A model generated the notes under the pieces. That model did no database searches. It was given only the letters and a program-made list of their open reading frames with translations, and was not told the origin of the DNA. Both the position numbers and the translations under genes were made by a program. 64,000 nucleotides of DNA from a bacterium (GTDB lineage Bacteria > Bacteroidota > Ignavibacteria > Kapaibacteriales > UBA2268), in assembly GCA_037127915.1 (NCBI GenBank), contig JBAXXL010000004.1, forward strand, positions 32,509 through 96,508. The letters are read 5' to 3'. Shown one piece after another: positions 18,470 through 49,070 of the stretch (positions are counted from its first letter, which is position 1; every line of letters starts with the position of its first letter).

Positions 18470-21079
18470 TTAATCTTTTACGCAACGAACTGCGAAACCA
18501 TTGCCCTTGTAGATGCCGTAACTACTCTGACTAGAAAAAAGATTATACAGGAACCTGCTCCATGCTTGTGCGGTACTGTACTCATTAGAACTCCACCAAT
18601 AACAGCGGTATCCAATAGCGTAGTAAGTCCCATAGAATCCTCTATATCCGGCTGGGAGAGCCGAAAATCCATATTTATCAGTAGCATCTGTGTTTGGGCT
18701 ATACCACAAACCATCTTTTGCTTCGATTGTACCTGTACTTTTTAATTTACTGCCAGCTAAACTTTCACCTCCAAGATAATCAGATAAAGTCGTCCACTCT
18801 CCATCGCTCGGTACGTGCCAGCCTGTCGGAGCCAATCCGCGAGAATCTTTAACCGCATACCAATTATATAGCTTGCCGTAAATTGCTCCCACATCAGGGT
18901 CGTTATTGTAATAGCACCAAGCACCTTCTCCTTTGCTATTGGCATCTGCCCAGTCAACAGCCGTTTCAGCGTATCGGATTTTGGTTCCATCACGGTAAGT
19001 TGAAACATCAAGGTTTTTCTTCATCCATATCTGTGTACCAATGGTAACGGATTTGTTGCCGTCAGGGTCGGTAGGCTTAACGGTAAAATCAACATCATTG
19101 CTTTTTGTTCCATTTACAGTTACTGATACTTTACCGGTTAATGCACCAGTAGGCACTTTTAATTTTATTTCGGTAGCACTCCAGCTTTGGTAATCACTTT
19201 GCTTTGGATTTATAGAATTAAATGAAACAAAGCCTGTGCCTTGCGTTGTGCGGAAACCAGTACCGGTTAGAGTGATAATTTCGCCTATTTCAGCTGAAGT
19301 TGGAGAAATAGAATTTAAAGTAGGAGCCTCTGAGTCTTTAACACAACGAACTGAGAAGCCACTTGACTTACTATCATTGCGCCTGTAAATAACGGTAACA
19401 TTGTAAAACAGATATCTGCTCCAAGCACCTGTGGTATAAGACATAGTCGAACTCCACCAATAACCGCTGTATCCCATATTATAGAATATTCCATCAGTAG
19501 TACGTGCTCCACCGGGTAACCCTGAAAAGCCGATTTCATTCGTGGCACCTGTATTCGGACTATACCACAATCCATCTCCAGCCTCTATTGTTCCTAAGCT
19601 TTTTAATTTTCCGCATGCTACGCTATCTCCGCCTATATAATTTGTCAACGTAGTCCATTCATCATCGCTTGCTACGTGCCAACCTACAGGAGCTAAACCG
19701 CGTGTGTCGTTTAATGCGTACCAATTGTAAAGTTTTCCGTAGGTCGTTCCGTTGTTAGCTTCATTTTTATAATAGCACCAAGCCCCGGTTTTGAGATTTT
19801 TCCATTCTGTTGAATCAGTAATCTGAGGTATTGTGTCTCCATTTCGGTAAAAACATACATCGAGATTTTCTCCCATCCATACTTGTGTTCCAATGGTATC
19901 AGATGTATATGAATTTCTTTCAGTGCATGGAGTTAAAACTATAAAATCTAATCCATTGATTTTTGTCCCATTTACAGTTACTGAAACTTTGCTTGTTGTT
20001 GCTCCGATTGGAACTTTTAATTTTATTTCGGTATCGCTCCAGCTTTGGTAATCACTTTGCTGTGGTTTCGTATCATTAAATGAAACGTAGTTTGTTCCTT
20101 GAGTTGCGCCAAAGCCGGCACCGGAAAGAGTAACAATATCACCGATTGATGCGGAAGTTGGCGTTATAGAATTTAAAATAGGATTATATAAATCTTTTAT
20201 GCAACGAACCGAGAAGCCACTAGCTTGATAATTGTCCTCCTTGTAAATACCCGATTCAGCCAAATTCAGGGCCCTGCTCCATGGATGTGACGTAATGCCT
20301 TCAGTAGAACTCCACCAATCACCACCGAAACCAATATTACCGAACCAACCATAATTGTAATGGCGGGAGCCACCAGGTAGTGCAGAAAAACCGGTTTCAT
20401 TCGTTGCACCTGTATTTGGACTTAACCAATGAGTTGTTCCTGCTTCTTTCAACTTGCCGCCGGCAACACTTTCTCCGCCCAAATAATCAGAAAGAGTTGT
20501 CCACTCTTCATCGCTCGGTACATGCCATCCATCTGGAGCTAAACCGCGAGAGTCATTTACAGCATACCAATTGTAAAGTTTGCCGTAAACCGCTCCCAAT
20601 GCAGGGTCGTTATTGTAGTAGCACCAAGCACCGCTTGTTAAATTAACCCAAGCTATGGAATCAGTTACTTGAGGTATCTCATCACCATTGCGGTAATGGT
20701 CAACATCAAGATTCTTACACATCCAAGTTTGAGTGCCAATTACAACTTCAGTACATGTATTTGGAATGAAAATGATACTGTCTATATCGGTTATACTAAA
20801 ATTTTCTGATGAACTTAGTAGATTAATTGTTAATTTGGTGGAATTAATAAACTCAATTGAATTTATATCTATCACATTATAAGTATTTATAGAGCCATTT
20901 GCAAAGATTTCCATTGAATAAGACAAATTTGATTTGATAAAATCAAGCCTCGATATATCAGCAATTTTGTATTCTTTAGTCTGGCTTCCATCATTAAGAT
21001 AGAATTTTACTACAGGGTCTAGAGCATAAAGCGATAATGCAAAAAAGAACATCAATAAAATAAGTATAACTTTTTTCAT
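18470..21079 (-). CDS. Secreted protein: 3 N-terminal beta-repeats, 3 FISUMP (Fib_succ_major) domains and 2 IPT/TIG domains; no CTD
   Basis: Three copies of IGTQ.WM..NLDV...YGKLYNWYA...P.GWH....EW...GF.VRC.KD; two copies of LNSI.PTSA.IG.I.TL.G.GF...WS.TEIKLKVP. Confidence 0.92.
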   Translation of the reverse strand: MKKVILILLMFFFALSLYALDPVVKFYLNDGSQTKEYKIADISRLDFIKSNLSYSMEIFANGSINTYNVIDINSIEFINSTKLTINLLSSSENFSITDIDSIIFIPNTCTEVVIGTQTWMCKNLDVDHYRNGDEIPQVTDSIAWVNLTSGAWCYYNNDPALGAVYGKLYNWYAVNDSRGLAPDGWHVPSDEEWTTLSDYLGGESVAGGKLKEAGTTHWLSPNTGATNETGFSALPGGSRHYNYGWFGNIGFGGDWWSSTEGITSHPWSRALNLAESGIYKEDNYQASGFSVRCIKDLYNPILNSITPTSASIGDIVTLSGAGFGATQGTNYVSFNDTKPQQSDYQSWSDTEIKLKVPIGATTSKVSVTVNGTKINGLDFIVLTPCTERNSYTSDTIGTQVWMGENLDVCFYRNGDTIPQITDSTEWKNLKTGAWCYYKNEANNGTTYGKLYNWYALNDTRGLAPVGWHVASDDEWTTLTNYIGGDSVACGKLKSLGTIEAGDGLWYSPNTGATNEIGFSGLPGGARTTDGIFYNMGYSGYWWSSTMSYTTGAWSRYLFYNVTVIYRRNDSKSSGFSVRCVKDSEAPTLNSISPTSAEIGEIITLTGTGFRTTQGTGFVSFNSINPKQSDYQSWSATEIKLKVPTGALTGKVSVTVNGTKSNDVDFTVKPTDPDGNKSVTIGTQIWMKKNLDVSTYRDGTKIRYAETAVDWADANSKGEGAWCYYNNDPDVGAIYGKLYNWYAVKDSRGLAPTGWHVPSDGEWTTLSDYLGGESLAGSKLKSTGTIEAKDGLWYSPNTDATDKYGFSALPAGYRGFYGTYYAIGYRCYWWSSNEYSTAQAWSRFLYNLFSSQSSYGIYKGNGFAVRCVKD

Positions 21080-21090
21080 AAATCACCTTC

Positions 21091-21549
21091 CTATTTAACC
21101 AAAATCATTTTTTTGGATTGAACTTCGCTATTGAATCGTACTTCGTAGTAATAAACTCCGCTCTCGACGCGATTTTTATTCTTGTCTAAGCAGTTCCAAG
21201 GTAGCGTGTTTTTACCAATTTGGCAGTTATTACATTCTAACTTTTGGATTTGTTTTCCGCTATTATCATAGATAATGACCGCAACATCGCCTATAGTTGC
21301 AATTTCAAACTCAATATTAGTCTGCTCCTGAAATGGATTCGGATAATTTCCGGCGACCGACAAACCTTTTGCGATTTTTGTCGGCTCGTTTACGGATGTA
21401 ACATTCTCAAATTTGATCTTTTGGATTTTATTAACAGCAATTTTCTCTATTTGGTTGTTTTTCAGTTTAATAACCAGTGTATCTGTTTGTGCATTTAACA
21501 AGAAGTTACAAGCAAATAGCACTATAAAAGCGGTTGTTAGAAATTTCAT
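21091..21549 (-). CDS. Small secreted protein: one beta-repeat plus T9SS/FlgD-Ig-type C-terminal domain
   Basis: Signal peptide; NYPNPFQEQTNIEF...IYDNSGKQI...W...VESGVYYY...KKMILVK. Confidence 0.88.
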   Translation of the reverse strand: MKFLTTAFIVLFACNFLLNAQTDTLVIKLKNNQIEKIAVNKIQKIKFENVTSVNEPTKIAKGLSVAGNYPNPFQEQTNIEFEIATIGDVAVIIYDNSGKQIQKLECNNCQIGKNTLPWNCLDKNKNRVESGVYYYEVRFNSEVQSKKMILVK

Positions 21550-21789: not shown

Positions 21790-21790
21790 G

Positions 21791-21877
21791 TGGAAAGGGA
21801 GGGATTCGAACCCTCGGTACAGTTCCCCGTACACACGCTTTCCAGGCGTGCCAGTTCAACCACTCCTGCACCTTTCC
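21791..21877 (-). tRNA. tRNA-Ser(GGA)
   Basis: GGAAAGG/CCTTTCC acceptor stem, CACGC-CTGGAAA-GCGTG anticodon arm, long variable arm, GGTTCGAATCC T-arm; CCA not encoded. Confidence 0.96.
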
Positions 21878-43071: not shown

Positions 43072-44136
43072 ATGAATAACTTACTGAAATCCGATAAAAA
43101 CGATATGTTTTCGATTCTAAAAGATTATCCGAACGATATCCAAAAAGCCCGGAAAATGTATGATAATCCTGAAATAGGCGATATCAAAGATTTTCAAAGT
43201 ATAGTAATTTGCGGTATGGGCGGTTCGGCTATAGCCGGCGAAATAGTCGGTTCGCTAATTAATTATCATACAGAAGGTACGCCAAATCAGCCAACGGTGT
43301 TTATAAACCGTGAATATACATTACCTCACTTTGTAAATGAAAATACGTTGGTGATTTTAAGCTCATATTCGGGTAATACAGAAGAAACATTATTTTCAGC
43401 TTTAGAAGCGGTCCAATTAACGAAAAAAATAATTGTCATCACAACCGGTGGTGAACTGGGAAATTTTGCGCAAAAGAATAATTTACCTGTAATTGAATTG
43501 CCTGTTGGATTCCAACCGCGCTGTGCTTTGGTTTATGCTTTGATTGCGTTATTAAATATAATAGCCAAATTGGGTATTTCAATTCAAAAAGCGGGTTTGG
43601 ATAAATATTTGGATAAAATAGAAAAGAACGCCACGGAAAAAATGGCTGTTTATTCAGATATAAATGATGATAATATAGCTCTTCAAATCGCTCGCAAGCT
43701 TCAAAACAAAATCCCGGTTATATACTCCGAAGGCAAATACTTGGGCGCAATTTCTCTGCGCTGGCGTCAGCAAATTCACGAAAACGCTAAGCAAATCTGC
43801 TTCGGAAATACGCTACCCGAAATGAACCATAACGAGATTAACAGCTGGAATTTTCCTAAGCAGTTAATCGCGCAAAGCCAAGTAGTTTTTCTACGCGACG
43901 AGCATATAGAAAACAAACGGATGGGACTGCGATTTACAGCTTTCACTAAAATTTTGAATGATGAACATATTGAACTGATTCAAATTTCTCCCGAAGGCGA
44001 TTCGCTATTAGAGCGTCTATTCGATTTGATCTATCTTGGCGATTGGGTAAGCTATTACTTAGCAATGCTCAACGAAACCGACCCGACGGATATTCCTTTT
44101 ATCCTGTATTTAAAGGATTATTTGGGAAAGAATTAA
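43072..44136 (+). CDS. Bifunctional phosphoglucose/phosphomannose isomerase
   Basis: GMGGSAIAG, SYSGNTEET, QPR, ENAK, PEMNHNE, GDWVSYYLA. Confidence 0.93.
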   Translation: MNNLLKSDKNDMFSILKDYPNDIQKARKMYDNPEIGDIKDFQSIVICGMGGSAIAGEIVGSLINYHTEGTPNQPTVFINREYTLPHFVNENTLVILSSYSGNTEETLFSALEAVQLTKKIIVITTGGELGNFAQKNNLPVIELPVGFQPRCALVYALIALLNIIAKLGISIQKAGLDKYLDKIEKNATEKMAVYSDINDDNIALQIARKLQNKIPVIYSEGKYLGAISLRWRQQIHENAKQICFGNTLPEMNHNEINSWNFPKQLIAQSQVVFLRDEHIENKRMGLRFTAFTKILNDEHIELIQISPEGDSLLERLFDLIYLGDWVSYYLAMLNETDPTDIPFILYLKDYLGKN

Positions 44137-44901
44137 TACGGCCTATTTATCGTTCCCAAGCTCCTGCTTGGGAACGGCTTGGCCAATAATTGAATATCTA
44201 AACCTTCAGAAGGGATGGAACCGCAGACCTGAAAACGTTTGTAGAAAAAATAATGGACCGAAAGATTTTTGACCAGGGAAAAACTCACAGACTTATTAGA
44301 AACAAAACTGCTACGTTCAGAGCAGTTTTATCCAAGTTCTTGCGCAAATCACTTATTATGTGTTTTATAAATATCATTTTTTTGGTTTATAGATATGATT
44401 GATTTAGAAGAATCCACACCCCAATTGTATAGTGATGTTTGCCAAATTATTGATGGTACCCGCACTCGTATTGCAACCACTCTTAATGCCGAAATTTGTA
44501 TGCTTCACTGGCATATTGGCAAACGCATTAAAGAAGATGTGCTGTATAACAAACGGGCGGAATATGGCAAAGAAATTTTAAAAAACTTATCTGTTTTGCT
44601 TACCTAAAAGTATGGCAAGGGTTGGGGTTACGAAAAACTCAAACATTGTGTACGCAGTGCGTACCTTTTTACGGAAGAACAGATTGTGTACGCAGTGCGT
44701 ACACAATTGACTTGGACACATCTTCGGTCGCTTATGGGTGTCGACGACGAACTGAAACGCTCGTTTTACTTCGAAATGGCTCGTTTGGAACACTGGGATA
44801 CCCGCACGCTTGATAAAAAAATTGATGCAATGCTCTATGAAACCGACCCAACAGATATTCCTTTTATTCTGTACTTGAAGGATTATTTGGGAAAGAATTA
44901 G
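44062..44901 (+). repeat. 75-bp imperfect direct repeat of the pgi/pmi 3' end (44062-44136 and 44827-44901)
   Basis: 67/75 nt identical; both copies encode AML(N/Y)ETDPTDIPFILYLKDYLGKN*. Confidence 0.93.
44395..44901 (+). pseudogene. DUF1016/YhcG N-terminal relic with an in-frame stop, fused to the displaced pgi/pmi tail
   Basis: W.IGKRI...RAEYGKEIL..LS..LT*KYGKGW...QLTWTHLRSL...R.FY...W..RTL..KI; the nuclease domain is absent. Confidence 0.88.
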
Positions 44902-45150: not shown

Positions 45151-48100
45151 TTAATCCTTAATACATCGAACCGAATTACCATCTTTTTTATTAGCTCCAC
45201 CACTGCTAGCTACTCCATTTTGATTATAGTTTAAACTTCTTGCATTTCCATTTGTAGCATTGAGTTCAGTAGCTGACCACCAGGAACCGAAATAACCAAT
45301 TAGGTCAAATTTACCATCATAAATACGGTAACCGCCTGGTAGTCCTGTAAAACCACTTGTATTTGTTGCTCCAGTATTTGGACTTTTCCAATGTGAATTG
45401 CCACTTTCTTTCATTTTCCCTCCAGCAGCATTATCACCACCTAAGAAATTAGATAAATTATTAAATTCTGAATTTGTAGGTATATGCCAGCCCATTGGGG
45501 CCAAACCACGTGGATCGATTACTGCATACCAATTATAAAGTTTTCCATAAGTTGTAGCATTATTTGGATCGTTATTATAATAACACCACGCACCCGTTGT
45601 TAAATTTGCCCACGCTGTGGGATCTGTTACTTGCGGTATTGGGTCGCCATTGCGGTAAGTTGAAACATCAAGATTTTTCTTCATCCATTCCTGTGCACCA
45701 ATTACTACTGATTCGTAGTTTGGTATTATTGAGGAATTCTCATTATATAATGCACTAATTTCTGAATCAGATAATGCATTATTATAAATACGAATATCAT
45801 CCATTAATCCATTATACCAAACTCCTGCACTAGGATTAGCAGCATATCCAAAATATAGACTACCAGAATTGTTTGTTTGAGAACCTTGATAATTATTTAA
45901 AATATATTTTTTATTGTCAATGTATAATGATGAATTATTGCCATCCCAGACCCAAGCAATATGATACCATTTTTTAGAATTCAAAGTAGCTAGCTTTGGT
46001 TTAGAAACATTATTCGTAGTGTTTATTACTAAATTCCACCCATCGGTTTTATGTGTGGCAATACCATAAATAGGTGATTTAATCTTGTCACCTTTAAAAA
46101 GGAAAGGTGCCCATTCACCACCCCACCAATTATTAATATTTACCCAGAACGACATTGTGAAAGCTGATGTTAATTGTAGTGAACTTGAATTTTTTATTTC
46201 AATGTTATTCGTTACCCCATTAAAACTATATGCCTTATTATCCTGTCCAAACCGGTCTTTCACTAATGATGCTCCGTTAACTATCCCATTTTGCCCATTT
46301 CCACTTTCATCGTTTGCATTGCCATTAAAAGGATAATAAGCTACTAGCCCTTGTGTAGGGATTTGGTTGTTAGTAACCGTGAAATCTTTTGTAATTGTTG
46401 TTTGATTAAAGTTTCCATCACCAGCAGCAATATAAAATCTTAAAACGGTTCCAACGGGATATTTTGAGGTATTTACTAAGATTTCTCTTGTAATATCCTT
46501 TTGAGCATTTGATAAAGTTTCTTTAGCAATAGTTTCGTTCTTTTTTGTTGTCTGATTCTCAACAGAGATTTTCCAAAATTGAATAGAGCTATCATCTGTT
46601 AAATGAATTTTCGCTGTAACATTACTTCCTTGAGGAATTGTTGTTTCTGTTGGTGCAGTTAATTCAACTGTTGGTTTTGTAATATCATTTGGACTATTAG
46701 TTACTTCAATATTAATTGTTTCATCAGTACGGTTTCCATATTCATCATAAACAGTCAATCGTAATTTATGATAGCCTAAAATCTTATTTGCCATCCAATT
46801 AAATTGTATATCTTTAGTTTTAATATTCTGGTCTAATAAATCCTCTGTCTGGTATGGTTTAGTATTATTATCGTTATCAACATATAAATGAGCTTTACTC
46901 AATTTTAGGTTATCAGATAAAGTTGTTGATATATTTACGTAATTTAAAGGTGCAACCTTGTTATTATTTGGAACAATGGAATTGATTTTTATTATGGGTT
47001 TTTCTAAATCTTTTGTTACGTCTGGTAAAACAAAGAAGGTAGAATACTCATTAATCCACCAGAGATCAAAGTAAATACCTAAGAAATCCAATGAATTACA
47101 CAATGCAGTTGAAAATGCAACAATTCTATTTATTACTTCTTCTGAAATTGAAATACTAAATACTTTTGCAATTACTTCTATTAACTCTTTATCGGTAGTG
47201 ATTAATTTAGCTGTTTCTAAGCAAGCACCTGGTATATCATTTTTTGCTAATTTCTCCTGAATTTCAGATTTTGCAAGTATTCTATTTGAATTAGTATAAA
47301 TAAAATCTATAATTTCCTGGTACAATTCCATATTTTTTGGGTCTAACTTACCAAAATATCCTGATATTATACAATCAATAGCGGGCATAGCCATAGATGC
47401 AACCGTTCTAAAGTAAGGGTCTAAATAAAAATTATCATTATGATCATATCCAATGATGTTATATCCAAATGCAGGTCCACATGCCTCTATTGTAAATCCA
47501 TTACTTATTTTAATATTAAGTATTTTAGGATTTTCAAATTGTTCATCTAATAAGGATCCTAATAATGAGGAATTGGCTTTTAATGGTCCTACTTGGAAAA
47601 CTTCCCCAGGCAATGCATTAGTTCTTATATTAATATGTCTTTTCCTATTGTTAGTTATTTTCACTTGAACAAAACCATCCTGATTACTATTAGCTTCGAC
47701 TTTTATACCTGATTCTTCAATTGGCAATACTTTTAAGTCATTTAACAGTACGTCAAAATTCTTATTAATTTTATTTATTTTTCTCAATATTTCAGGTTTT
47801 TTTCCTGTAATAAATTCATAAACTTTGCTTACTGCCATTTCTAAAACTGGTTTTAGTGTATCGTCCATTGTATTAGTATATGATAGTCCTTCATTTTGAA
47901 ATTGTTCAATTCTATTTGCAATCCATGATGTTTCACCTAAATTATTAATAAAGTCAACAACATTATCTTTCATACTATCTAAAGATACACCTGCCATCAT
48001 AGTGTTTAAGAAAATTATTACAGATGCAGTAGATTTGGAGTTAATATTACAGACTAAATCGGTTGTTTTAATTATGGAAGCACCAATAGCACTATCTTGT

Positions 48101-48600
48101 TGATTTTTAAGAAAAATAATTTGAGGTAAATTGTTATTTGGTATTCTGATAATGAAATCTCCATCAATCCCGATTTTACGATTAAAGTCATTGAAACTAC
48201 TGACGATAAGTTGGTCTCGGTTTATTATTAAATCCGTAACCCAGCCATTAATAATCCTTGCATCTGAGGCGTAAAAAACAACGCTATCAATGTCCATAAG
48301 TTTTAAATTGCTTATTTCAAGAGAGGAATAAACTCTTAAGATGCCTGGTTCGCCGAATAAATCGACGATGATAATACTATCAATGTCAGATATATAGAAT
48401 TTTGATTGTAAAGAATCCTTTGTAAAGATTCTCATTAATCCGGCATTCTGACCTTTTATAAAACCGATATTTCCAATATTAGCAATCTTATATTCTTTCG
48501 CTTGGCTTCCATCATTAAGATAGAATTTTACTATCGGGTCTATTGCATAAAGTGATAATGCACAGAAGAATACCGATAAAAGAAGTAAAGTTTTTTTCAT
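45151..48600 (-). CDS. Large secreted protein: 3 N-terminal beta-repeats, unknown domain, Ig-like domains, LamG and one FISUMP; no CTD
   Basis: GLVAYYPFNGNANDESGN...MDDIRIYN.ALS (LamG); IGAQEWMKKNLDV...SVRCIKD (FISUMP). Confidence 0.9.
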   Translation of the reverse strand: MKKTLLLLSVFFCALSLYAIDPIVKFYLNDGSQAKEYKIANIGNIGFIKGQNAGLMRIFTKDSLQSKFYISDIDSIIIVDLFGEPGILRVYSSLEISNLKLMDIDSVVFYASDARIINGWVTDLIINRDQLIVSSFNDFNRKIGIDGDFIIRIPNNNLPQIIFLKNQQDSAIGASIIKTTDLVCNINSKSTASVIIFLNTMMAGVSLDSMKDNVVDFINNLGETSWIANRIEQFQNEGLSYTNTMDDTLKPVLEMAVSKVYEFITGKKPEILRKINKINKNFDVLLNDLKVLPIEESGIKVEANSNQDGFVQVKITNNRKRHINIRTNALPGEVFQVGPLKANSSLLGSLLDEQFENPKILNIKISNGFTIEACGPAFGYNIIGYDHNDNFYLDPYFRTVASMAMPAIDCIISGYFGKLDPKNMELYQEIIDFIYTNSNRILAKSEIQEKLAKNDIPGACLETAKLITTDKELIEVIAKVFSISISEEVINRIVAFSTALCNSLDFLGIYFDLWWINEYSTFFVLPDVTKDLEKPIIKINSIVPNNNKVAPLNYVNISTTLSDNLKLSKAHLYVDNDNNTKPYQTEDLLDQNIKTKDIQFNWMANKILGYHKLRLTVYDEYGNRTDETINIEVTNSPNDITKPTVELTAPTETTIPQGSNVTAKIHLTDDSSIQFWKISVENQTTKKNETIAKETLSNAQKDITREILVNTSKYPVGTVLRFYIAAGDGNFNQTTITKDFTVTNNQIPTQGLVAYYPFNGNANDESGNGQNGIVNGASLVKDRFGQDNKAYSFNGVTNNIEIKNSSSLQLTSAFTMSFWVNINNWWGGEWAPFLFKGDKIKSPIYGIATHKTDGWNLVINTTNNVSKPKLATLNSKKWYHIAWVWDGNNSSLYIDNKKYILNNYQGSQTNNSGSLYFGYAANPSAGVWYNGLMDDIRIYNNALSDSEISALYNENSSIIPNYESVVIGAQEWMKKNLDVSTYRNGDPIPQVTDPTAWANLTTGAWCYYNNDPNNATTYGKLYNWYAVIDPRGLAPMGWHIPTNSEFNNLSNFLGGDNAAGGKMKESGNSHWKSPNTGATNTSGFTGLPGGYRIYDGKFDLIGYFGSWWSATELNATNGNARSLNYNQNGVASSGGANKKDGNSVRCIKD

Positions 48601-48611
48601 AACGCACCTGT

Positions 48612-49070
48612 CTATTTAACCAAAATCATTTTTTTGGATTGAACTTCGCTATTAAATCGTACTTCGTAGTAGTAAACTCCGCTCTCAACCCGGTTGTTAT
48701 TCTTGTCGAAGCAGTTCCAAGGCAGTGTGTTTTTACCAATTTGGCAGTTGTTACATTCTAACTTTTGAATTTGTTTTCCGCTGTTATCATAAATAATAAC
48801 CGTTACATCTCCGATAGAAGCAATTTCAAACTCAATATTAGTTTGCTCTTGGAATGGATTTGGGTAATTACCGGCGACAGACAAACCGCTATCATTTTTA
48901 GTAGATTCGTTTACGGATGTAACATTTTCAAATTTAATTGTGCGGATTTTAGAAACGGCAATTTTGTCTATTTGGTTATTCTTCAGTTTAATAACCAATG
49001 TGTCTGTTTGCGCATCTAAACAGTAACTATATGCAAATAGCACTATAATTGCGGTTAATAGAAATTTCAT
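48612..49070 (-). CDS. Small secreted beta-repeat plus T9SS/FlgD-type CTD protein, close paralog of 21091-21549
   Basis: The mature sequence is nearly identical to the 152-aa protein; start moved to MKFLL. Confidence 0.88.
   Translation of the reverse strand: MKFLLTAIIVLFAYSYCLDAQTDTLVIKLKNNQIDKIAVSKIRTIKFENVTSVNESTKNDSGLSVAGNYPNPFQEQTNIEFEIASIGDVTVIIYDNSGKQIQKLECNNCQIGKNTLPWNCFDKNNNRVESGVYYYEVRFNSEVQSKKMILVK

Follow-up and report, generated by a model that had tools for sequence, protein, structure and literature searches.

Two gene pairs in the window

The window analysed here is the whole 64,000-nucleotide (nt) stretch of contig JBAXXL010000004.1 (positions 32,509 to 96,508 of the forward strand; assembly GCA_037127915.1) from a bacterium of the order Kapaibacteriales (Bacteroidota, Ignavibacteria). 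It holds two pairs of genes on the reverse strand. In each pair, a small gene encoding a protein with a C-terminal sorting domain (CTD) belonging to the T9SS (type IX secretion system) is followed by a long gene encoding a protein that lacks such a domain. The small proteins are called adaptors and the long ones cargos, according to the functions proposed for them below. Their features are listed in Table 1. Cargo gene 1 starts 11 nt past the stop codon of small gene 1, and the gap in the second pair is likewise 11 nt.

Table 1. Features of the two small/cargo gene pairs (window coordinates).
Feature	Position	Strand	Description
Small (adaptor) gene 1	21091..21549	-	152 amino acids (aa); signal peptide, one beta unit, flexible linker, type-A T9SS CTD
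Small protein 1, single unit	21400..21489	-	residues 21-50; predicted binding surface
Small protein 1, T9SS type-A C-terminal sorting domain	21094..21345	-	residues 69-152
Cargo gene 1	18470..21079	-	869 aa; signal peptide, 3-unit N-module, FISUMP x3, IPT x2; no CTD, no lipobox
Cargo 1, N-terminal 3-unit module	20762..21016	-	residues 22-106; 3 matches of the unit hidden Markov model (HMM)
Small (adaptor) gene 2	48612..49070	-	152 aa from ATG at 49070; 88% identity to gene 1
Cargo gene 2	45151..48600	-	1149 aa; signal peptide, 3-unit N-module, long unassigned region, LamG, one FISUMP; no CTD
Cargo 2, N-terminal 3-unit module	48268..48537	-	unit HMM

A preliminary description of this DNA had read small gene 1 as a signal peptide, one unit of about 26 aa with 6 Lys and a CTD, and cargo 1 as a leader, three related units and FISUMP/IPT domains with neither CTD nor lipobox. 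Scans of the open reading frames (ORFs) and profile scans confirmed these coordinates and architectures. The second pair, which had been noticed at 45151-49070 with another cargo body, was also recovered, and that body proved to consist of LamG and one FISUMP domain.

Small proteins and the T9SS of the host

The CTD of small protein 1 matches TIGR04183 with 39.0 bits (cut-off 23) and PF18962 with 30.4 bits (cut-off 27) over residues 69-150, and that of small protein 2 also exceeds both curated cut-offs (40.1 and 31.2 bits, respectively). At the other end, a basic n-region, a hydrophobic core and an Ala-Gln junction can be read in the sequence and are kept in 26 relatives, which points to an N-terminal Sec signal peptide. 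When the small protein was folded alone with AlphaFold2 (AF2), its CTD formed an Ig-like sandwich of seven strands with a predicted local distance difference test (pLDDT) of 80-91, while the unit appeared as a hairpin only (pLDDT 66-79) and the linker (residues 51-60) had a pLDDT of 49. Foldseek searches with the CTD model retrieved PorU (6za2, E 3.8e-4) and PorZ (5m11, E 1.8e-3) of Porphyromonas gingivalis, and these matches sit among generic Ig-like ones, such as FlgD.

Concerning the host, the genome of the window (4.14 Mb, 35% G+C, 99.3% complete) encodes PorU (803 bits), PorZ (294 bits) and SprA (730 + 218 bits), all above cut-off. A PorV-like gene adjoining that of PorU (164 + 82 bits) lies just under the cut-off of 250. 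Type-A CTD matches number at least 150 in this genome, and no GspD-type secretin was found in it. The CTD match, the Sec leader, the fold and the presence of the translocon and attachment genes in the host together identify the small protein as a T9SS type-A CTD protein.

The small protein belongs to a family of 75 relatives (140-182 aa, 49-100% identity) from metagenome-assembled genomes labelled Kapabacteria, Ignavibacteria or Bacteroidetes/Chlorobi group. The unit (residues 21-50) is strongly conserved in 26 aligned relatives and in 14 loci.

Within the CTD, all 26 relatives compared keep Cys106 and Cys109 (about 21223-21234 of the window, reverse strand), and a third cysteine near position 121 is frequent. 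Conserved cysteines are not known to be a usual feature of type-A CTDs, so these residues may form a disulfide or a metal site.

Cargo proteins and their N-terminal module

Scans of the two cargos with the whole of Pfam-A and NCBIfam gave no sorting domain of any type at E <= 0.01, and neither protein has a cysteine in its first 40 residues, as a bacterial lipoprotein would. The cargos carry neither a type-A nor a type-B CTD in cis and are not T9SS substrates in the usual sense.

Their bodies belong to families of lectin-like domains. Cargo 1 matches Fib_succ_major (PF09603) with 469.9 bits in three stretches and TIGR02145 with 302.6 bits, and it has two TIG stretches. The FISUMP domain of cargo 2 also scores above cut-off (PF09603, 154.9 bits; TIGR02145, 106.1 bits). 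The LamG region of cargo 2 gave a weak match to TafC, and apart from it no fimbrial or pilin family was matched in the Pfam-A and NCBIfam scans.

The three related units at the N-terminus form the module. An HMM built from 33 units matches exactly 11 of the 11,271 ORFs of the genome, with three units in each, and no curated family of Pfam-A or NCBIfam matches the module over protein residues 20-110. The genome thus encodes 11 proteins with the N-module, together with five paralogs of the small protein. Eight of the 11 cargo genes stand in clusters headed by a small gene, and on contig C20 one small gene is followed by four cargo genes.

One further FISUMP protein of this genome (222 aa; contig C3:81947-82615, locus L086) is encoded beside two module-type FISUMP genes and has, by eye, a lipoprotein-like leader with a cysteine. 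The FISUMP domain therefore appears to be used with two different N-terminal anchoring devices.

Conservation of the pair across genomes

The loci inspected comprised nine full-length loci from named genomes, those of the window's own genome and 20 from a sample of 301 genomes of the class. They contained 32 small genes, of which three had no downstream DNA, leaving 29; two of these 29 loci (L105 and L106) had been reached through the module and not through the small gene. In 28 of the 29, the next ORF on the same strand carries the N-module. At the one exception (L005) two unrelated genes lie between, and the module gene follows 1.3 kb further on. The two genes overlap by 4 nt at nine loci, and adjacency is kept across families with 25-45% identity. 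The E-values of the module profile used in this second round are flattering because the profile included the signal peptide; coverage was relied on instead, and the match extends beyond residue 98 in 26 of 28 cases. Regarding these data, the small/cargo pair is a real, conserved cassette.

In the 301-genome sample, the module profile matched in seven genomes and the small-unit profile in 16, with a union of 19. On inspection both parts were present in 18 of these 19 genomes, and the remaining one (G245) is cut by a contig end. The co-occurrence of repeat proteins and small genes foreseen in the preliminary description therefore stands. It had also expected this co-occurrence only in T9SS-positive genomes. 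SprA was indeed found in the window's genome and in all 18 other part-bearing genomes (18/18), a count that does not discriminate.

Some variants of the cassette were seen in the sample. At L104:4261-4926 (G158) the adaptor is 221 aa long, an additional domain standing after the unit and before the C-terminal domain. At L102:3563-4780 (G294) it is the cargo that deviates: it has a single N-terminal unit, and its ORF shares 29 nt with the small gene. Two small/cargo pairs stand in tandem on one strand at L093 (G270, contig C44).

The module family and natural fusions

Among 1.84 billion proteins, the module profile found 160 representatives at E <= 1e-3, of which 150 were listed. In a local re-scan, the module starts at or before residue 40 in 148 of the 149 representatives re-scored. 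The outlier, P0109, is an Ig-repeat protein and probably a spurious member. The bodies of the 150 listed representatives repeat what was seen in the window: Fib_succ_major in 90, TIG in 54, FGE-sulfatase in 15, Lcl_C in nine, and LRR and LamG in a few.

Only three of the 150 listed representatives (P0124, P0194 and P0225) carry a CTD in cis according to Pfam. In these three proteins, the small-unit profile matches directly before the CTD (E 1.7e-7, 1.5e-6 and 3.4e-12, respectively), and the C-terminal 125 aa of P0225 share 32-36% identity with the small-protein family. As judged from their sequences, they are Rosetta-stone fusions, in which the module, the body, a fourth, small-like unit and the CTD follow one another in a single chain. 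Each holds exactly 3+1 units. The fusion of a cargo to the small gene of the next pair, in a tandem like that at L093, would give this exact order.

Another metagenomic protein, P0138 (495 aa), has the module, a FISUMP domain and a small-like fourth unit, followed by about 135 residues without a Pfam match in place of the CTD. This tail might serve for sorting or anchoring in a different manner.

How far the small unit is akin to the cargo units is harder to establish. The preliminary description had claimed a beta-repeat shared by both proteins; the HMM bore out the three cargo units, and homology with the small unit turned out weaker than claimed. The cargo-unit HMM does not detect the small unit above chance (two of the five small paralogs, at E 5.2 and 9.6), and the full small-protein profile gives weak matches at the N-termini of 18 of the 150 module proteins, to which the signal peptide contributes. 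MAFFT aligned the small unit onto cargo unit 1, placing the small proteins on the N-terminus of P0124, and cargo unit 3 onto the small-like unit 4 of P0225. These alignments and the weak profile matches do no more than hint at a common descent of the small unit and the cargo units. Another remark, that the small unit is basic where the cargo units are acidic, is true of both pairs in the window (each small unit carries +3, the modules -6 and -2) and becomes only a tendency across 25 pairs, where the small unit is at or above zero in 22 and the module at or below zero in 19.

Fusion P0124 was also folded with AF2. Because the MAFFT alignments had put small proteins and units at the places just described, they were left out, and the model was built with cargo rows only. 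In it, the fourth unit (residues 307-331) has three strands with a pLDDT of 85-94, although no more than one other alignment row covers it. Foldseek comparison of this model with the PDB gave nothing below E 0.16 for the module. The top match, the beta domain of NAD kinase, was rejected as an identification of the module (template-modelling (TM) score 0.2). A structure search of the ESM Atlas brought up clusters from Bacteroidota (185-190 aa; TM by query 0.80-0.83) and portions of proteins from the pectate-lyase family (TM by query 0.56-0.65), which serve as leads only. The FISUMP domain of P0124 (residues 120-301), modelled with a pLDDT above 90, likewise has no PDB match below E 0.16, and going by this model the domain seems to be without a solved relative detectable by Foldseek.

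Predicted complex of small protein and cargo module

The complex was predicted from the module alignment (A2) and the mature small protein (A1, residues 21-152) at a stoichiometry of 1:1, in three runs. The ipSAE score was 0.79-0.80 in the three runs (0.80 overall) versus 0.00-0.01 in three controls. This mark is reached by 58 of 80 solved complexes and by two of 110 mismatched pairs, counts that hold only roughly here because our own alignments were used. At least 93% of the contacts are common to the runs, and the pLDDT of the partner is 81-82. On the small side, the interface comprises residues 21-31, 35-37 and 39-50, that is, the unit. On the module side, it comprises residues 1-10, 14-33 and 75-85, which correspond to unit 1 and to the strand that ends unit 3. 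The pLDDT of the module is 84-85 with the small protein, as compared with 56 and 69 with unrelated partners. The interaction of the small protein with the cargo N-module, which the preliminary description had proposed to examine in this way, is thus predicted at 1:1, with the interface on the unit. Together, four independent kinds of computed evidence make it probable that the small unit binds the N-terminal module of the cargo.

Two neighbours that are merely co-regulated and share an ancestral N-terminal segment, without any physical contact, would offer another explanation, with the predicted complex as an artefact of beta-prone peptides. It draws on the computed nature of all the interaction evidence and on the fact that the small unit does not resemble the cargo units significantly in sequence. 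However, an artefact of this sort hardly fits with controls near zero, with an adjacency that holds in families so far diverged, or with fusions that carry a small-like unit in the same protein, so the absence of an interaction seems improbable.

The units could also assemble into a larger polymer (homo- or hetero-), for instance a fibre or layer on the surface formed by strand exchange, instead of being parts of a closed 3+1 domain. They are repeats that pair edge to edge, a one-unit cargo (L102) and an adaptor with an extra domain (L104) exist, and the prediction covers the 1:1 stoichiometry only. On the other hand, the small unit is in contact with unit 1 as well as with unit 3 in the 1:1 model, which fits a closed domain, the fusions keep exactly 3+1 units, and the only fimbrial match is the weak one to TafC on the LamG region. 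A polymer is therefore regarded as very unlikely.

Proposed mechanism

The small protein and its cargo can be read as a T9SS substrate split over two genes, in which the cargo travels on the CTD of its partner. Both proteins would reach the periplasm by their own Sec signal peptides, as read from their sequences. There, the small unit, a hairpin whose third strand is predicted to form only upon binding, would slot between unit 1 of the cargo and the final strand of its unit 3, and the result would be a completed beta domain of four units and roughly 12 strands. The type-A CTD, on its flexible linker, would then bring the complex to the SprA/PorV translocon, through which both proteins would cross together. 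Afterwards, PorU and PorZ would remove the CTD and attach what is left, a peptide of about 45 residues, to anionic lipopolysaccharide (A-LPS). The CTD-less cargo would end up on the surface, hanging by its N-terminus from a non-covalent clasp to this glycolipid-anchored remnant, with its lectin-like FISUMP or FGE-type domains and its free C-terminus facing outwards. One adaptor type may serve several cargos, as suggested by the five adaptor and 11 cargo genes of this genome and by the cluster of one plus four.

Co-export followed by anchoring is the most economical reading, given a partner that is a genuine CTD protein and a T9SS-rich genome in which no other export route is evident for the cargos. 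The steps agree with what has been described for the system: T9SS substrates are transported folded (PMC9251779), and PorU cleaves before the CTD, with A-LPS-bound small CTD proteins being known (PMC12152298). An anchor that is N-terminal and detachable also makes sense, since the cargo bodies expose their binding face at the C-terminus. The preliminary description had made this last remark about FISUMP domains, and it agrees with the account in PMC5758913, where the Fib_succ_major/DUF1566-type and FGE-sulfatase-type targets of diversity-generating retroelements (DGRs) have a variable, exposed region at the C-terminus.

The binding evidence is silent on the compartment in which the proteins meet. 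Hence, the small protein could be an anchor only, a surface peptide linked to A-LPS whose clasp captures a cargo that has crossed the outer membrane otherwise (by vesicles, lysis or an unknown exporter). The excess of cargo genes over adaptor genes (11 versus 5) suits this explanation too. Nevertheless, the cargos have no lipobox or other recognisable export signal, the genome has no GspD secretin that could be found, the natural fusions carry module and CTD together on a single chain, and the 4-nt gene overlaps fit joint synthesis. Capture at the surface is considered unlikely for these reasons.

Binding without co-export is the other possibility to be weighed. The small protein could act as a periplasmic cap or chaperone, or form a periplasmic complex, while the CTD merely disposes of it or recycles it. 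This would be in line with the gain in module confidence in the presence of the partner and with the incomplete fold of the small unit alone. Nonetheless, the bodies found on the modules (Fib_succ_major, FGE-sulfatase type, IPT, LRR, LamG) are of kinds described as surface-exposed ligand binders (PMC5758913), and in the fusions the chain that bears the body also ends in the CTD. A purely periplasmic role is accordingly judged improbable, to much the same degree as the lack of any interaction.

Several points weigh against the co-export and anchoring of a complex. Binding, export and anchoring are all computed or inferred, and no precedent of hetero-complex export by the T9SS was found in the literature searched. 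A non-covalent passenger would have to survive a translocon step in which, according to the structures, the CTD leaves first, through a lateral opening with PorV (PMC10994853). Three of the 11 cargo genes of this genome (two on C3 and one on C16) have no adjoining small gene, and G211 has seven module matches versus one small-unit match, so adaptors would have to be shared. Each of the three fusions is a singleton (one member on one contig, from three sources) and may be an assembly chimera. A word search with small-protein residues 21-70 among longer proteins gave no further fusions, and one with the C-terminus of P0225 gave only CTD-level matches. The docking of unit 4 within P0124 is deduced from pLDDT only, as that model gives no contacts. 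Finally, the SprA count does not discriminate, and the charge complementarity across pairs is a tendency only.

The preliminary description had held that its idea would fall if no interaction were predicted or measured, if relatives of the cargo were common without the small gene or in genomes without a T9SS, or if the cargo were exposed without the adaptor. As far as these points were examined, none of this was observed, and the proposed checks that were run all favoured the idea. With all this in mind, the full model of a two-gene, split T9SS substrate with piggy-back export and anchoring is favoured, although with modest confidence.

Comparison with known systems

The small protein resembles canonical type-A CTD substrates, such as the gingipain RgpB or RemA of Flavobacterium johnsoniae, in its Sec leader and its TIGR04183/PF18962 Ig-like domain, and its host has SprA, a PorV-like protein, PorU and PorZ. 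Unlike in RgpB and RemA, the CTD protein here is almost without passenger, and the functional domains lie on a CTD-less polypeptide encoded by the neighbouring gene.

In the Tat "hitchhiker" co-export, one subunit has the targeting signal and a signal-less partner rides with it as a folded complex. The pair described here would differ from it in the membrane, the machinery and the signal, and in that both proteins have Sec leaders, only the outer-membrane step being shared. There is also a likeness to donor-strand complementation in chaperone-usher and type V pili, where an incomplete beta domain is completed by strands of another polypeptide. Here, however, a whole three-strand unit would close a 3+1 domain instead of a single strand linking a polymer, and no pilin family was matched.

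Among T9SS proteins, PorA and P27 of P. gingivalis are small CTD proteins, as is the one described here. PorA is bound to A-LPS on the surface after PorU cleaves before its CTD (PMC12152298). Compared by description, PorA differs in being reportedly a ligand of the PorXY regulatory system via its CTD, and neither a partner-binding unit nor a CTD-less neighbouring cargo was found described for it (PMC12152298). Type-B CTD proteins with PorP-like partners encoded nearby are also alike in that a secreted protein is held non-covalently on the surface (PMC9143113), but there the cargo itself bears a CTD and has an outer-membrane protein as partner, whereas here the cargo is CTD-less and the partner is the CTD substrate. 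Lipoprotein-anchored Fib_succ_major/DUF1566 proteins, such as LdtA of Legionella, share the C-type-lectin-like body and the exposed C-terminal face (PMC5758913). They are anchored by an N-terminal lipid, in place of which the cargos would have a clasp, also N-terminal, to another polypeptide that is anchored.

T9SS targeting has been described as dependent on the C-terminal signal of the substrate itself, and a signal on a separate, tiny partner would depart from that. A recent review presents the C-terminal signal as the hallmark of the system and lists substrate specificity as an open question (PMC13721041). In the literature searched, supplements aside (including PMC9251779, PMC10994853, PMC10202321, PMC12152298 and PMC13721041), no description of a T9SS signal supplied in trans was found, in agreement with the preliminary description, which knew of none. 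The CTD-in-trans arrangement would be a new form of T9SS substrate organisation.

The wider proposition is that the T9SS can export CTD-less proteins, a family of adaptors of about 150 aa lending the CTD in trans through a split 3+1 domain that is then anchored to a glycolipid; the chances for and against it appear evenly balanced. If true, this would be a first hitchhiker mode for type IX secretion, and it would mean that a non-covalent complex can pass the translocon. It would also account for the arrival at the surface of lectin-like proteins that work with their C-terminus and have neither a lipid anchor nor a C-terminal tag. Moreover, predictions of secretomes based on the CTD would be missing a class of surface lectins (11 in the genome of the window), and the predicted secretomes of Ignavibacteria/Kapabacteria-type organisms would widen. 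The peptide/module pair would also offer a compact tag in two parts, natural and portable, to be tried for surface display in T9SS hosts.

Other observations in the genome and the window

A role of the cargos as variable proteins of a DGR was considered and rejected, as no DGR was found near them. The best reverse transcriptase (RT) match in the genome (C26) resembles a group II intron enzyme, and its region, compared by blastn, matched dispersed short repeats only and none of the cargo genes. Two RVT_1 matches were found in the genome, the 439-aa ORF of C26 and a partial one on C105 (46.9 bits, 175-aa frame); the judgement rests on C26, and C105 lies outside the comparison. The C26 gene (C26:19057-20376) is group II intron-like by eye, and its flanks share repeats of 30-140 nt with dozens of contigs.

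With respect to transcription, a scan for promoters and terminators gave sites no more numerous than in shuffled sequences. Three metatranscriptome runs of the same study, compared with the window, yielded one identical contig of 181 nt at 20464-20644 and a few short partial matches, too few for any conclusion on expression.

A tRNA-Ser (GGA) gene is located at 21790-21877 on the reverse strand, about 240 nt upstream of small gene 1. Just downstream of cargo gene 2, a direct repeat of 74 nt with 91% identity (44062-44135 and 44827-44900, copies 765 nt apart) duplicates the 3' end of a 354-aa gene (43072..44136) and brackets gene fragments, which looks like an old insertion scar.

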